From Chlamydiota bacterium (GTDB taxonomy: Bacteria > Chlamydiota > Chlamydiia > Chlamydiales > RGXB01): 64,000 nt of DNA. The DNA lies in contig CANLTW010000008.1 in assembly GCA_947494155.1 (NCBI GenBank), positions 1 through 64,000 of the forward strand. Reading direction: 5' to 3'. Position numbers: made by a program. Below, piece by piece: positions 45,001 to 57,000 of this stretch. Numbering within the stretch: position 1 is the first letter of the stretch; each line of letters starts with the position of its first letter.

Positions 45001-48000
45001 ATGGCGCTACCGTACAACCAATCTAAAAATCCCTTTTACCCCCTTTATCGTTCAAGAAGGCTTCATACTTTACTTCTGCTCTCCCTTTATTTAGTAGTAA
45101 AACCAAGATAAAGGGGGCTATGAAGCCCGAATAATTCTCTAGAAAATTTTAAAAAAAAGCTATTGCTGTGTTTTACTTTTGTACTCCAAGACTTCAACCC
45201 TCACCCTCCCCACCTTAAAGCGTTTTAAAAACTAAAACGTGAACGGGTGCTTTAGCACATTTTCCTTAAACTAGAGATGCATTTGAGCTACCCCATTTCA
45301 TTTTTGTTTTTTAGTTATATTTGAAAGCGTCCTATCAAATATAACTTAAAGGTTGCGATATAGAGATTGGTTTAATTTTTCTTTGTTTCGAGAGAATATA
45401 AAATGACCCCCCTCTCTCATTTTTTTTACAAAACAAGAAAGGTGTAGCGGTAAGTTTTTTGGTAACCAAGAAAAGAAAAGCTCAGCTTACACTAGGAGCT
45501 GATTTTTTGATTTCAGCTAAAAGGCTGTCTCTAAATATCCCTGGCTCGGACGCAAGCTCTTGATAGCTCCCTACCTGAGCGACTTTTCCTTTATCCATTA
45601 CATAAATGCGATCCGCATTTTTGATGGTGCTGAGCCTGTGGGCTATCACGATTCTCGTGATATTCAGCTCATCGATATTTTTCGATATGAGGTCTTGCGA
45701 CTCAGAATCCAAACAATTGGTCGCTTCATCCAAAATGAGCATACTCGGATTCGATATAAGAGCTCTGGCGATTAAAAGACGCTGAGCCTCCCCATTACTT
45801 AATGAGGAGCTTTCCGGTTGAACTACAGTGTGTAGACCCATACCCATTTTTTCTAGGTCTTTGTCGAAGTTAGACATTTTCACTGCACGGTCTATCTCTT
45901 CTTTTGTATAGATCCCGCCACAAACAATGTTACTGTACACAGTTCCTGAAAAAATAGAGCCATTTTGTAGCACAACACCCATTTTTTTTCTTAGTTCGCG
46001 CAGATTGAGGTTGCGAATATCTTTATTATCAAAATAAATAGTTCCCATCTCCGGAGTTTCAAAACCGAGTAAAATCCTCAAAAGTGTAGATTTGCCACAG
46101 CCTGTAGATCCAACAATTGCAATAAATTCCCCGGGTTGCACATCAATCGATACGTTTTCCAAAACCAAAGGGAGCTCTTTTGAGTATCTAAAAGAGATAT
46201 TATCTACATGGACTTCCCCTTGTAAATTATCGGGTTTGATTTTATCCTCCTCCGGCTCTATCTCCCCTTCTAGAATAACTTTTGCCCGCTCCCAAAGGGG
46301 AAAAATCGTTGCTATGTTAACCAAAGTTCCTACAAGCGAGGTGATGCCCGAAGAGAATGGGATATAAGCCGAAAAGAATCCCACAAGTTCCCCAATCGAA
46401 AAAATATAGTCGTTGCCGAAGGATTTACTAAAGAATAACCTGTCTGAGATGATGGAGAAAAAAATCAAGTAAGAGATGATATTTGTGATATAATTGATCA
46501 CCTGGACGATATTCGTTAAAAAAAACGACTGGTTGAAATAAAGGCGTTCTTCTGCAAAAAAGTTACACCAATAGTTAAATGCTTTGGTCTCAGCTCCCTG
46601 GCTCTTGATTTTTGCTATACCCGATAGCAACTGTATAATCACACCGTTGATAAAACCTTTGATCTTAAGAAGTTTTCTTAGAATCAGGATTTTATTATAA
46701 AGCACAATAGTATTTATTGTGGAGACGAGGAATACTATTAGAAAACCTATGCGTGCTAATTCCAAAGAAAAATGGCGCATAGCTACAAAATAAAAAACAG
46801 AAAAAATACCCGTTAAAAGAACATTTGAAACAGACTGTGTGCAAATATTTTGGATTTGATTCATCGATTGGGCTCTTTGGACCAAGTCTCCGGCACTAAA
46901 TTGTCTGAAAAAATTTACCGGTAGTTTTAAAAGCCGATCCCAAATAGCCGATTCGATTTTGAAAGAGAAAAGAATGGACAATCTCATGAAAGCTACTAAG
47001 TTTACGACCGAAAAGAACAGCTGGCTGAAAATCACCAGAAACATCCCGATGACCACTTCAAAAAACTCCCCCCGATGACCTAGCTGAATCACATTTAAAA
47101 ATAGGGTCTGATTCAAAAAAGGGAAGGCTATTCCTAAAAGCCCCCCAAGACAACCATAGATAAAAATCGATAAGAATGTCTTAAGATCGTATTTTGTGAA
47201 AAAAGTCAAAAATAGGGTCTTGAGATTGAGTTTCCCTTTCGGAAAAGGGAAATAGAGGGAATAGGCTTTTTTATCGAGTTGGTCATAAATTTTTTTGTCC
47301 AGCTTGGTCAGCTGCTGTGATATTGGGTCATGAACGTAGTAACTTATACCTCTAAAATTCAAAAGAGCGACAGGTTTATTATCTAATGTGAAAGCAAGTA
47401 TGGGTAGGCTATCGTATTTCCAAAAGCGATCCACTAAGTTTATTTCCCTTAATCTTACCCCATTTTTTTCACAAATTTCAAAAAGTCTCGGTAGCGGTTC
47501 TTTACGGACTAGAAGGTTTTTAGTAAAAGTAAAACCCATTTGCCGACCGATCCAAAAACAGGCTGTAAATATGGGATCGCTGTAATCGGTTAGGTCTTGG
47601 GACTGTTTGAGTGAAAGGATCGAAAACTTTTTCAAGGTCTCAGAAAGGACCCCCTTTTCCTCAAATATTTTTTGTTGGGATAAAATCTTTTCCTCTTTTT
47701 GTTTTTGAGGAAAATAAAAAAGAGTCGTTCTTTTAAAAGTGCGTTGTTGAATTAACCTCAGTGATTTCCAGATATCGGGATGAAACAACACTCTTTCTTT
47801 GGGAATTGTAGCCATTCTGGTTTTTTTGAGAGCGATAAGATTCCAGGAATCAAAGAAAGGGAATATCCCCAAAGACTCCTCCCACCCAGTAGAATTTTTT
47901 GAATCAATATCGACATTCCCCTCCAAAATCTCCATCCAGTGTTCGTGATCAATACACTCGCCAGTATTTTTTTTCTTGATAGTGAAATGTTCACCCTCTG

Positions 48001-54000: not shown

Positions 54001-57000
54001 CTCCTCAAAAACCACGAATGAATTAGCATGTTTTGTGATAAAATCTGACCAATTTAAATGGCCACACAGATCCACAATCTCCCGATTGTCAAAACCTGCA
54101 TGGATTAAGTCGGTAACATCCTTTTTTTTGATATTTGTTTTTGAACCGAGCATTTTTAGGGTAAATTCCACTGCTGCTTCAGCCATCTTTTCCTCTTTTT
54201 CTGACATTTTTTGAGAAAGATTTCGATTAAGTGCCCCCGCAAGGTAACGGCGCTGAAGAAACTCGGCTAAGGATAATTTGCAACCATTAAATTCTGCAGT
54301 CGCTAAAAAGACTCCAAGTTGCACAACATAAGGGATGGTGCTTTTTTGTAACCCTTTGATGTATCCTATATACCCTTTTTCATATTCTGACTTACCTTTT
54401 CCCATTTTAGACCAGGGCTCGATAAGACCGTTTTCATTTATTTTTTTACGACTTTTTTTTATCATCTGGGTAAACCTGTAAAAATTTAATCACTTACAAA
54501 AGGAAGGGTCTCTTCAAACTAGCATCTGTTTATGGTTTTTTGACTTTTAAGTGCTCTTTTTTTGTTTTTGCTAGTTCATTTCTCCTTAAATTTTTAATTG
54601 CCACATAAATAAAAAAGAATACAACAAAAAATTAAGAAATCTCCCCCGTCAAAAAAAGATAAAATTTTTTTCATAATATCGGCCAGCTGTGATGCACTTT
54701 GGACTAAACTAGATCTATCGAGCTCTTGTCTGCTTCGTTTTGTTTAGAAAAAAGACTACAAATACTTAGTTTTTGTAGTCTTAAGAAAAAGATGTGAATT
54801 GGTTTATTTTTTATTTTGTCGGTTTTAAGGTTTAGAACCCGGCGTTGTAAACCCACCTCCGCCTCCGGTAATTTTCTTTTCACGATTCTTATCTGAGGAT
54901 TTCTGCTCTTTTTTGCCCGGGTTTTTAGGTTGCTTTTTCATGGTCTATATCCCTTTTGTTTTCTTTCAATTATCCTAAATCAAAAAAAACTGCAAATGGT
55001 TGAAATTATATTTCTTTACAAACATATTTTTTAAAAAACTCCTCTATTCACTTGATTCATAGGATTAAAAAAATTTTCTCAAATGAGCGTTTTTTTCTTG
55101 ATTCAATAGGGTTTCTTCAGTATGAAAAATATTTTAAACCTTAAATCGACATGGTTTTGAGTATTCAAAGCCTTCGATTAGGGACATACGTTTGATGACT
55201 GTAAGGGGACCTATGCATTTTTCAAAATCTTTCATAGAGAGGCCGGTTGCTACACTTCTTGTGATGCTTACTCTCATAACATTTGGAGCGTATGCACTAT
55301 CCAATCTTCCGGTTTCAGTTTTGCCTAATACTACAGCAAACACGATCTCCGTTTCGGCAAACTATCCCGGTGCCTCTCCCGAGCAGGTAGCAACCCTTGT
55401 GACAGGGCCGCTCGAAACCCAATTTCTTTCCATTCAGGGAGTAGAATCGGTAAATTCTTCCAGTACCTACCAAAACTCTTCGATCCTTTTAAAATTCCAC
55501 CCCTCAATCAACATCAACGATGCTGCAACCAATACCCAGCAAGCCATTTCCCAAGTGCAAGGGCAGCTCCCCCCCTTACCCAATCTCCCCTCCTATACAA
55601 AGGTGAACCCCTCAGATACGCCTATTATGTATATAGTGGTCTATTCCGATACACAAGACCAAAGCTCGATTTATGACTATGCTAACAACATTATTGCAAG
55701 GCAGCTGGGCACAACTGAAGGGGTTGCTAATGTGCAGGTGTATGGAAATCCCTTTGCAGTGCGCATCCATATTGATCCGGAGTCGATCGCAGCTAAAGGA
55801 ATTACCCTTGCAGACGTCTCTAATGCCATCACTCAAAACAATCCTGTCAAACCTACGGGAAAGTTCTATGGACCCAATTTTACGATTATCACGACGGCAG
55901 ACGGGCAGCTCTTCAGCGCCGATGACTATAATAATATGATCATAAAAATTCAAAATGACAATGTGGTACGACTCACTGATATCGGAAGAGCTTTTAATAG
56001 CGTCCAGAATACGAACCAAAATATTCAATGGTTCAACAGAGGCGATTCAAAGGGAAAAGAGGCCGTTTTTATAGCTATACTTAAACAGAATAATTTCAAC
56101 ACGGTCACAGTATGTTCGAATCTTGAGAGTAAAATGTTGGAGCTGACCCCTTCGATGCCAAGGTCCATGAAATATGACATCTGTTTTAATCAAAAAAATT
56201 ATGTTCTCGAATCGGTGAAAGATATCGAAATGACTCTATATCTTGCCTTTATTTTAGTGGTAATTGTCGTTTTTCTTTATTTGGGAAAAATTCGTAACAG
56301 TGTGATTCCCCTGATCACGCTCCCCATTACGATCACTGGAACCTTCATCCTGATGTTTTTTCTAGGTTATAATGTGGATGTAATGTCTTTGTCGGCTATT
56401 ACTTTAGCTACCGGTTTCCTCGTGGACGATGCTATTATTGTTCTGGAAAATATCGTCCGGCACGGGGAGGAGGGGATGCAGCCCTACAAAGCCTCTATCG
56501 TCGGTTCTAAGCAGATTTTTACGGCAATTATTTCCATTTCGGGTTGCCTTTGCGCTGTTTTTATCCCCATGCTGTACATTCCAGGTCTTATGGGACAACT
56601 GTTTAGTGAAATGGCCGGGGTAATGATCGCGGCGATTCTTTTATCCGGTTTTATCTCCGTTACTTTGACTCCGATGCTTTGCAGTCGCTTTATTCCCCCT
56701 TACGACCCAAATAAAAAATCACGGGTAGAAGAGCTTTCTATAGCCTTCAACGAATTTTTTAGAAAATTTTATGTCCCGGTTCTCGCCTGGTCTTTACACC
56801 ACAAAAGGTCTATACTTGGGCTTTCTTTCCTTTTATTGATCACCTCAGTTGCCATAACGATAAAAACACCAAAAGAATTTCTCCCTGATACCCCTATTAA
56901 CGCGGTCATCGGTTATGTAGTGGCAGACGAAAGCGCTTCCCCGCAAAAAACGGAAGTTTTCCTGAAAGAGATTGCAAAGCACACCCTTAGCAACCCCTAT

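Follow-up and report, generated by a model that had tools for sequence, protein, structure and literature searches.

In the 1.4-Mb genome of a freshwater chlamydia, we found a family of 17 tiny genes encoding polybasic Gly-Gly peptides with hypervariable cores, which is the new element of the system described here. One of them heads an accessory island in the window (the 64,000-nucleotide stretch of contig CANLTW010000008.1 that was analysed), together with genes for an NHLP-type exporter, a cyclase-less LanM-type protein and two further proteins. Our preferred reading, which we rate as evenly poised between right and wrong, is that a system of small secreted peptides exists genus-wide, and that this island supplies it with a module for maturing and exporting peptides. 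The initial annotation had read the locus as a RiPP pathway. Its Gly-Gly peptide gene, NHLP-type exporter and cyclase-less LanM all hold, but neither Thr dehydration as the general output nor the status of a new subclass does.

An island within an efflux operon

By comparing genomes, we found that homologues of the two genes bordering the island (Table 1) are adjacent in the genus relatives G091, G067 and G032, with a gap of about 10 nt in G091 and G067. The operon and its small ORF, ~10.2 kb together, split an OEP-MFP-AcrB efflux operon that is contiguous in these three relatives, and the island separates the AcrB-type pump from its operon partners. No flanking repeat of at least 11 nt was found at the island ends. 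The island is present in 2 of 7 genus genomes, which bears out the lineage restriction proposed earlier. All seven ORFs were confirmed on the minus strand where they had been annotated, and all scores quoted for the island proteins were reproduced. In comparison to L030 (98.58% identical over 13,000 bp), synonymous outnumber non-synonymous changes in every island gene, with no stops in L030, and RNA contigs cover parts of the island.

Table 1. Features of the island and its flanks in the window
Feature	Position	Strand	Remarks
OEP (TolC-like) of RND efflux operon (flank)	42517-43950	+	
Membrane-fusion protein of RND efflux operon (flank)	43947-45026	+	
Inserted island	45027..55191		~10.2 kb; holds all parts except the flanking efflux genes
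g00822, 996 aa, second ABC subunit (NHLM_micro_ABC2 type)	45482..48472	-	TIGR03797 690.9 vs 709.4, residues 299-981
g00823, 737 aa, C39 peptidase-ABC exporter (PCAT), LahT-like	48476..50689	-	TIGR03796 833 vs 853.3
g00824, 351 aa, HlyD-type adaptor of NHLP exporter type	50701..51756	-	TIGR03794 145.3 bits vs 156.2
g00825, 535 aa, cyclase-less LanM-type Ser/Thr kinase-dehydratase (predicted)	51818..53425	-	Complete DUF4135
g00826, 187 aa, predicted diverged CMD/AhpD-fold protein without CxxC	53425..53988	-	hhalign, Atlas
g00827, 156 aa, predicted diverged CMD/AhpD-fold protein	53995..54465	-	First Cys of CxxC retained; second Cys and His lost
Hairpin (11-bp stem) then T-run, terminator-like end of small transcript	54746..54782	-	
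38-codon gene, polybasic Gly-Gly peptide	54825..54941	-	25 Lys-rich residues, five Gly, 8-residue variable tail
Sigma-70-like promoter candidate	55005..55034	-	TTAAAA, 18 nt, TATAAT; 10/12 positions; consensus match only
AcrB-type RND pump (flank)	55192..58401	+	Likely ATG near 55222

The polybasic Gly-Gly peptides

The island peptide gene had been described as a weak ORF. It does not stand alone, with 16 relatives in the same genome. The 38-aa frame, its purine-rich RBS and a hairpin with T-run 43-79 nt past the stop are all present. The 110 nt downstream fold at -15.6 kcal/mol, and a consensus terminator scan missed the hairpin because it requires 3 G-C pairs. Two sigma-70-like sites lie upstream, to which we attach little weight since the region holds 4 such sites against 2.5 ± 1.6 in shuffles. 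A 155-nt metatranscriptome contig (54799-54953) spans just the small ORF. Moreover, the 90-nt leader (first 30 codons) has no DNA change compared to L030; in the last 8 codons, by contrast, 10 changes fall within 20 nt, giving five non-synonymous codons and no synonymous one, and the neighbouring intergenic DNA differs by about 3%. A point against a coding role is that every one of the eight codon changes observed in the ORF is non-synonymous, an outcome that neutral non-coding DNA would give about one time in ten. Overall, we regard the 38-codon ORF as very probably genuine.

Two tails of the island peptide were observed, FTTPGSKP here and QAIPGGRP (allele 2) in L030, with the frame, the stop and a P-G-x-[K/R]-P pattern preserved between them. 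Allele 2 was also seen in DNA run X10 and RNA run X15, and X4 and X10 have nine flanking SNPs in common, yet different tails. We read this as replacement of one tail allele of the island peptide by another among near-identical strains. Past the Gly run, allele 2 is devoid of Ser, Thr and Cys, which leaves g00825 nothing to dehydrate in that tail; contrary to the initial annotation, Thr dehydration of the island peptide is therefore not obligatory and cannot be its general output.

By scanning for ORFs of 15-90 aa that start with M and whose leader before GG is at least 35% K/R, we obtained 20 matches in the genome compared to 5 in the reversed genome. MKK, MQK or MMKK starts were found in 18 of the 20, but in none of the five control matches. 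We retained 17 as a family, the island peptide being one of them; none is overlapped by more than 4 nt by any ORF of at least 120 aa, and most have an AGGAG-like RBS. These genes are intergenic and scattered among unrelated genes. Their products have a very Lys-rich leader of 20-30 residues ending in Gly-Gly, often within 3-5 consecutive Gly. The tail that comes next is variable, 3-48 residues long, and contains Ser/Thr in 14/17 cases, Cys in 10/17 and a Cys pair in six.

Several observations bear on the range of the family. First, a pattern for the N-terminal DNA matched six times in this genome, each time a family peptide, and in 0 of 30 fetched loci of other Chlamydiales. Second, orthologues with the leader retained and the tail altered occur in G129 and G144, although no NHLP-type ABC1 was found in G144 (genome 89% complete). 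Third, G067 and G032 have the exporter, but neither profile nor pattern searches turned up members of the family in them; one was found by eye in G067, ~180 nt upstream of the HlyD-ABC1 operon. In addition, two members flank an ABC transporter gene on contig C13.

None of the curated Pfam and NCBIfam models matched the island peptide (P0001) at E ≤ 1, and six family members gave no relevant match against NCBIfam at E ≤ 10. Nor does the leader readily conform to the rule of LahT150, the closest solved protease, which calls for hydrophobic residues at -4, -7 and -12. By hand tabulation, Gly-Gly is found in 17/17 peptides and an aliphatic residue in 9/17 at -4, 2/17 at -7 and 2/17 at -12, Lys being common at these positions; excerpts of the LahT150 study (PMC6363468) report that cleavage was lost when -4 or -7 was occupied by a charged residue. 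The Lys-rich Gly-Gly leader shared by the 17 genes is apparently an undescribed type.

Predicted dehydratase, exporter and CMD-fold proteins

DUF4135 matches g00825 (E 1.8e-51) in two stretches, profile positions 2-204 and 258-377 of 378, so only the LanC half is missing. The initial annotation was therefore right about the absent cyclase and too narrow in giving only 2-204 for a domain that is whole: LANC_like had no match at E ≤ 1 in g00825 or in the six-frame genome, and in an alignment with LanM g00825 ends where LanC starts. Against the LanM class model TIGR03897, g00825 has the kinase-like dehydratase residues, but not the LanC domain, and scores 208.5 bits compared to a 304-bit cut-off (profile 10-271 of 932). 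As aligned, it retains all nine catalytic residues of CylM, for the putative kinase and elimination steps (R390 and T396): D167, H169, K188, D263, H265, N268, D280, R390 and T396, invariant in 10 aligned sequences, against D252, H254, K274, D347, H349, N352, D364, R506 and T512 in excerpts of PMC4550811. The 535-aa form has a clean end and is retained at 79% and 63% identity, which speaks against the truncated LanM suspected before, and its codon changes relative to L030 are 19 synonymous to 6 non-synonymous. Other Chlamydiales genomes matching g00825 number 29 of 400 at E ≤ 0.001 and not 13 as first counted.

The three adjacent genes for HlyD adaptor, C39-ABC and second ABC have the layout of an NHLP export system, with each product under the equivalog cut-off of its family (Table 1). 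Exporter scores are 805-833 bits in this genus compared to a cut-off of 853, and 866-969 in chlamydiae with true NHLP precursors. In this genome no NHLP or Nif11 leader was found for the exporters (best match E 0.11, in a 314-aa frame), nor any NHLP or NHase_alpha match. The C39 domain of g00823 matches LahT150 (6mpz) at E 1.1e-42, and Q30, C36, H109 and D125 align with LahT Q21, C27, H101 and D117, the catalytic positions according to excerpts of PMC6363468. g00822 is extended at its N-terminus by 298 residues that belong to no known family, and its residues 1-430 had no PDB match. The "C5 paralogue" noted previously is a second exporter trio (HlyD 50%, ABC1 59%, ABC2 50% identity), but not a copy of the whole locus.

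g00826 and g00827, previously called ORFans, are so by sequence search, which gave 2 proteins at E ≤ 0.001 of which one is the own cluster; at the level of fold family they do have relatives. Both are predicted to be diverged CMD/AhpD-fold proteins without the CxxC motif. Comparison by hhalign with canonical CMD gave a probability of 96.2% for g00826 (E 2.6e-9, 135 columns) and 91% for g00827 (E 1e-6), each with an Atlas score of 0.92 for CMD. For g00827, canonical CMD proteins of 170 aa in genus relatives were matched as well (E ~1e-6), as was TIGR01926 (E 1.9e-4); neither protein reaches a family cut-off (21.3 bits against 81.8). Both align over 116-135 columns with canonical same-genus members of the CMD/AhpD-like family (Pfam CMD, TIGR01926), but the CxxC...H redox motif is lost in g00826 and down to one Cys in g00827. 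Synonymous to non-synonymous codon changes relative to L030 are 6:1 for g00826, which has an 81% identical orthologue in G129 and an RNA contig (53422-53934), and 4:1 for g00827.

How the island may act

The new RiPP subclass claimed earlier is pre-empted by two systems in excerpts of PMC9505594: PoyF (polytheonamide), by which Thr is dehydrated with neither a cyclase nor ring formation, and EmbM/phospeptin, a cyclase-less LanM-like enzyme with a Cys-free Gly-Gly peptide. By that description, PoyF is a DUF4135 dehydratase half like g00825, which likewise keeps phosphorylation and elimination residues in DUF4135 alone. PoyF-type precursor features are lacking here: proteusin precursors have long NHLP leaders, of which this genome has none, the allele 2 tail has no Thr, and the locus has no radical SAM or other proteusin enzymes. 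AerF of aeronamide is also a stand-alone LanM-type dehydratase domain of a proteusin. The EmbA peptide of 'Ca. Eudoremicrobium malaspinii' has, as here, a Cys-free core with Thr and a Gly-Gly motif (excerpts of PMC9505594 and PMC9259500), but its leader is Nif11 whereas ours is short and polybasic, and EmbM, which goes no further than phosphorylation, is without the elimination residues that g00825 has in R390 and T396. As in NHLP/Nif11 class II systems with a LahT-type PCAT (prochlorosin-like), we found many dispersed putative precursors with conserved leaders and hypervariable cores, one enzyme set, a three-gene exporter and a C39 domain matching LahT150; in contrast to them, LanC is absent and the leaders are 20-30 residues long, Lys-rich and mostly without the -7 and -12 hydrophobics.

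In the maturation and export module that we propose, the 17 tiny genes would provide the substrates. Before export, g00825 would phosphorylate Ser/Thr in the tails that have them and then eliminate the phosphate to give dehydro-residues. With LanC absent from the genome, any Cys addition would have to proceed without catalysis. The LahT-like domain of g00823 would cut after Gly-Gly, and g00823, g00822 and g00824 would export the tail with an outer-membrane channel, g00826 and g00827 acting as non-redox accessories. We only tentatively extend this to the view that the peptides, secreted and partly modified, form a new leader class. In that case g00823 would have come to recognise a polybasic leader instead of an amphipathic helix, the cyclase-less LanM would dehydrate Ser/Thr tails, and tails would evolve as one allele replaces another among near-identical strains, in the manner of arms races over bacteriocins or pherotypes. 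If so, ~17 genes of a reduced 1.4-Mb genome would serve a peptide repertoire in a presumably intracellular chlamydia, possibly aimed at co-infecting microbes or the host.

Less likely, the peptides leave the cell without modification, as class II bacteriocins or peptide pheromones do, with the LanM acting on only some other members, on g00826/g00827 or, as a kinase, on a non-peptide or host substrate. The allele 2 tail, with no hydroxyl residue, would agree with this, as would the housekeeping contexts, devoid of precursor or exporter, of 8 of the 10 stand-alone ~500-aa DUF4135 proteins scanned in other Chlamydiales. Discrete tail alleles uncoupled from flanking SNPs also resemble pherotype polymorphism, but the island contains no sensor kinase or regulator. 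Against unmodified export, g00825 keeps its elimination residues in addition to those of the kinase and is co-inherited with exporter and peptide as one island; as LanM substrates, g00826 and g00827 are disfavoured by having no Gly-Gly near their C-termini.

It is improbable that the small ORFs encode uncleaved polycationic (nucleic-acid- or membrane-binding) proteins with a Gly hinge that lie near exporters by coincidence. The leader is indeed unlike known double-glycine leaders, the genes are scattered and three tails have just 3-6 residues. However, it is the Lys-rich part that is conserved and the tail that varies, whereas a functional cationic domain with an expendable tail would show the reverse. 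Gly-Gly falls consistently at 20-30 residues, members adjoin ABC export genes in three separate cases, and the Cys pairs in six tails suggest extracytoplasmic peptides. Finally, we consider it very improbable that a class II lanthipeptide cluster is decaying here, with its cyclase lost and precursor remnants left, as other Chlamydiales with full LanM genes and NHLP precursor arrays, the split of the ABC2 genes of both exporters into several ORFs in G129 and the near-cut-off exporter scores might suggest, given that no NHLP remnant was found in the genome, RNA contigs lie over parts of the island, codon changes are purifying without stops in L030, and the 535-aa form has a clean end with all catalytic residues invariant.

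Insertion site and distribution of the island

In three genus relatives (G091, G067 and G032), the OEP, membrane-fusion and AcrB-type genes form a single contiguous efflux operon, with about 10 nt between the stop of the fusion-protein gene and the start of the AcrB gene in G091 and G067. Since these flanking genes are contiguous there, the stretch 45027-55191 of the source genome (G000), small ORF included, is an insertion of about 10.2 kb. The operon is interrupted after the fusion-protein gene and before the pump gene; a search for flanking repeats (at least 11 nt) gave none. 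The AcrB gene kept its old stop-RBS-ATG junction (TAA, 8 nt, ATG near 55222) and lost its upstream operon partners, and therefore needs a new promoter within 54942-55191.

Features of the island and of its flanks
Feature	Coordinates	Length	Strand	Place
OEP and membrane-fusion genes	42517-45026			upstream of unit
38-codon ORF	54941-54825	38 codons	minus	first of unit
Hairpin and T-run	54782-54746		minus	3' of 38-codon ORF
Spacer		359 nt	minus-strand unit	between small ORF and g00827
g00827		156 aa	minus	3' of spacer
g00826		187 aa	minus	3' of g00827
g00825		535 aa	minus	3' of g00826
HlyD-type adaptor		351 aa	minus	3' of g00825
C39-ABC exporter (g00823)		737 aa	minus	3' of HlyD-type adaptor
Second ABC subunit (g00822)		996 aa	minus	last of unit
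AcrB-type gene	55192-58401			downstream of unit

The island is also carried by the relative G129 (81% protein identity for g00825) and, at 98.6% identity, by the metagenome contig L030; it was not found in the other five genus genomes. Among 24 listed sequencing runs from fresh water or lakes, 20 (18 studies; six RNA libraries) contain it at least in part, and 14 DNA runs from public lake metagenomes hold at least half of its sampled words. All family scores quoted in the initial annotation were reproduced, and its description of the locus is confirmed with the corrections given below. An Rfam scan of 54300-55400 returned just two chance snoRNA matches (E 0.5-0.9). In one DNA run (X4), two 31-nt contigs from the A/T-rich spacer (54603-54640) reached depths of 25 and 45 vs ~5.6 around them, which points to a short repeat or a low-complexity word common to other DNA of the sample.

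The predicted dehydratase g00825 and two diverged CMD-fold proteins

The initial annotation had regarded the DUF4135 domain of g00825 as partial. We found two matching stretches (profile 2-204 and 258-377 of 378), so that this is not half a domain. According to PMC4550811, CylM uses D347, H349, N352, D364 and K274 for phosphorylation, and D252, H254, R506 and T512 for phosphate elimination. By counting the equivalents along HMMER alignments to CylM and LicM2, and by aligning ten sequences (g00825, one homologue at 79% identity and another, P0009 from a 62-kb contig, at 63%, together with two stand-alone proteins and six full-length LanMs of chlamydiae), we found that D167, H169, K188, D263, H265, N268, D280, R390 and T396 of g00825 are invariant in all ten. 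In the alignment, g00825 ends where the LanC domain starts in the full-length enzymes, and there is no LANC_like match anywhere in the G000 genome (97.6% complete). Since the phosphorylation and elimination residues are all kept and the LanC half is absent, g00825 should be, judging from its sequence, a full kinase-plus-lyase enzyme resembling PoyF, a cyclase-less LanM that dehydrates Thr and is described in PMC9505594; g00825 is likewise cyclase-less with both kinase and elimination residues. It does not look like the kinase-only enzyme EmbM, also cyclase-less, which phosphorylates Thr in a Cys-free Gly-Gly peptide: according to the same source EmbM lacks the elimination residues, whereas g00825 keeps R390 and T396. 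Two structure predictions weigh neither way, an AlphaFold2 model of g00825 from a 3-row alignment being too low to use (pLDDT 32.0) and a complex prediction of g00825 with the island peptide giving no answer (score 0.02, mark 0.32).

The initial annotation had suggested that a linear dehydropeptide made by a cyclase-less LanM would be a new RiPP subclass. PoyF and EmbM are established (PMC9505594) and further stand-alone DUF4135 proteins exist in chlamydiae, and therefore the enzyme type is not new. Ten such proteins of 407-555 aa were found in other Chlamydiales, and both G183 and G161 combine an 83-87-aa ORF with genes for an ABC exporter and for a DUF4135 protein of 498 aa. Eight of the ten, from eight genomes (L046-L052 and L063), match the first profile half only (~6-185). 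Their neighbours are housekeeping genes, and neither a precursor nor an exporter is close by; at L046, F-box genes and genes for eukaryote-type kinases are found in the vicinity. Instead of RiPP enzymes, these proteins may be kinase-like effectors. Full LanMs occur in other chlamydiae, next to arrays of NHLP precursors that end in E-L-x-x-x-A-G-G. Five loci combine a full-length LanM with up to seven NHLP-type precursors with AGG/AAA-type cut sites (L053 in G202, L054 in G007, L055 in G219, L056 in G259 and L059 in G083); L053 and L054 also hold YcaO, TfuA, ThiF and ThiS genes, a combination suggestive of clusters for thioamidated lanthipeptides or of proteusin-like ones.

The products of g00826 and g00827, first described as ORFans, are related to CMD/AhpD proteins by profile comparison. 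Against four canonical CMD proteins, g00826 reached a probability of 96% (E 2.6e-9, 135 columns) and g00827 one of 91% (E 1e-6), and g00827 also matched the canonical CxxC-bearing 170-aa CMD/AhpD proteins of genus relatives directly (E ~1e-6). The protein atlas also suggested CMD for both (score 0.92). The CxxC...H motif is lost in both, g00827 retaining the first Cys only. In an exhaustive HMMER search, g00826 retrieved only its own cluster and one 901-aa protein, P0011. Residues 45-76 of g00826 are matched by 12 distinct stretches of P0011 (34% identity), which suggests that the latter is a repeat protein made from a motif that g00826 also has. Both proteins are conserved, since the ratio of synonymous to non-synonymous codon changes relative to L030 is 6:1 for g00826 and 4:1 for g00827 and G129 has an intact g00826 orthologue. 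A single-sequence AlphaFold2 model of g00826 was too low to use (pLDDT 35.8). In four genus relatives (L022-L025), the canonical 170-aa CxxC protein adjoins a short-chain dehydrogenase. G000 may lack such a canonical gene, because a search of the genome with g00827 matched g00827 itself only.

A hypervariable island peptide and its family

The 38-codon ORF is very likely a genuine gene. Divergence from L030 amounts to 0.9-2.7% of sites in the island genes and ~3% in intergenic DNA. The small ORF shows no difference over its first 30 codons but has 10 changes among the 20 bases at 54832-54851, changing the tail from FTTPGSKP (allele 1) to QAIPGGRP (allele 2, without Ser, Thr or Cys) while keeping the frame, the stop and the P-G-x-[K/R]-P pattern. 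Among three DNA runs and one RNA run compared, allele 2 was found independently in one of the DNA runs (X10) and in the RNA run (X15), the latter variant also carrying P8Q, G9E and Q13E in the leader. X4 and X10 have nine flanking SNPs in common and different tails, and the tail allele is therefore uncoupled from its surroundings. Assemblies break around the small ORF in X4, X10 and G129, as would be expected at a site of strain differences; in G129 an assembly gap between contigs C178 and C71 covers the DNA from g00827 to the small ORF. The X15 RNA contig (155 nt, 54799-54953) starts 12 nt upstream of the ATG and reaches into the hairpin; its ends need not be those of a transcript, and DNA carry-over is possible. 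DGR-type mutagenesis was rejected, the ten changes not being adenine-specific, and so was cassette switching, as G000 has no donor copy of allele 2 and L030 none of allele 1, with three chance 12-mers only. Such variation of an 8-residue tail, in lake strains that are nearly identical elsewhere, points to strong diversifying selection.

By scanning the whole G000 genome for ORFs of 15-90 aa with an M start and a leader of at least 35% K/R before the first GG, we obtained 20 matches, vs 5 in the reversed genome, all arginine-rich and none with an MKK start. We kept 17 members; three matches were left out, one a second reading frame of a member, one on C12 inside a 476-aa ORF and one on C1 that is unrelated. 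All 17 are intergenic, most of them preceded by an AGGAG-like motif, with leaders of 20-30 residues (8-12 K/R) and tails of 3-48 residues that contain Ser/Thr in 14 and Cys in 10 members; those at C10:10055-10204 and C17:23094-23252 are examples rich in Ser/Thr/Cys. Three stand in a row at C17:22759-23252, and pairs occur on C10 and C13. For the N-terminal DNA pattern M-[K/Q]-K-Q-[P/S]-K there are six matches in G000, two in G129 and 0-3 per genome in 399 other Chlamydiales; the matches are family members in 6/6 cases in G000 vs 0/30 loci fetched elsewhere. A profile search had confined the family to the island-bearing G000 and G129. This was refuted by orthologues in G144 and a member in G067, and the profile search therefore lacked sensitivity. 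In the G129 and G144 orthologues, leaders are mostly kept and tails changed. No Pfam or NCBIfam model matched the island peptide, nor did any NCBIfam model match six scanned family members, and no description of such a family was found among literature listings and abstract openings.

In several members the Gly run is encoded by G8-G10 homopolymers (G000 C10:10055-10204, C17:22908-23252 and C17:25915-26046; L110 5071-5154). The G8 run of the G067 member leaves a 1-residue tail, and one G fewer would give 11 residues; likewise, a second copy on C18 (20593-20650) is truncated in G000 by A8, with A9 in G129. These length differences could be slippage-based on/off switching or sequencing error.

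Exporters and leader recognition

Several observations link the family to C39-ABC exporters. First, G000 has a paralogous exporter trio on C5, syntenic in G067, G032 and G129, and a family-type ORF lies ~180 nt upstream of a second HlyD-ABC1 pair in G067. Second, an ABC transporter gene on C13 has a family member on either side. Third, no NHLP or Nif11 leader was found in the G000 genome, and the ABC1 proteins of this genus score 805-833 bits vs 866-969, above the family cut-off, in other chlamydiae with NHLP precursors. G144 has family members, and no NHLP-type exporter was found in its 89%-complete assembly.

g00823 has a C39 domain that matches LahT150 (E 1e-42) and retains Gln, Cys, His and Asp at their positions. 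Double-glycine leaders are so far recognized by hydrophobic residues at -4, -7 and -12. When we tabulated the 17 leaders by hand, an aliphatic residue was present at -4 in nine and at -7 and -12 in two each. As the leaders mostly lack aliphatic residues at -7 and -12, g00823, if it cuts them, must have a different specificity. Its C39 net charge of -9 is the most acidic of 13 compared (-7 in the G129 island), vs -3 to -5 for C5-type domains and +1 to -6 for chlamydial exporters serving true NHLP precursors, ranges that overlap.

The initial annotation had read the locus as a pathway that cuts the leader after Gly-Gly and exports a short Thr-dehydrated peptide. This is supported in part: the family peptides are probably cut and exported by C39-ABC systems, and we tentatively propose that g00825 modifies some of them. 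That it modifies the island's own peptide seems unlikely, and the allele 2 tail offers it no residue to dehydrate. The chances appear about even that a system of Lys-rich Gly-Gly peptides exists throughout the genus and that the accessory island supplies it with a dehydratase and a second exporter. Four features appear to be new: the family of polybasic Gly-Gly leaders, the number of its members for a genome of 1.4 Mb, the hypervariability of the tail, and the association with two degenerate CMD-fold proteins. To our knowledge, reduced-genome chlamydiae are not known to produce bacteriocin-like or modified peptides, and the listings, titles and abstract openings searched gave no literature on chlamydial lanthipeptides or C39 exporters. 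Cutting and export of these peptides, if they take place, would widen the known rules for the recognition of double-glycine leaders, and the system as a whole, if true, would be a natural test case for a LanM dehydratase acting without a cyclase on very short, leader-divergent substrates.

In G129, the ABC2 genes of both exporters are split into 2-3 ORFs (L062 3606-6598 on C1; L113 3201-4894 on C88), with one in-frame TGA listed; in this 79%-complete genome of 180 contigs, the splits could be decay or assembly error. Residues 1-298 of g00822 form an N-terminal extension that the paralogues on C5 and in G067 and G032 (992 aa) share and that has no Pfam, NCBIfam or PDB match.
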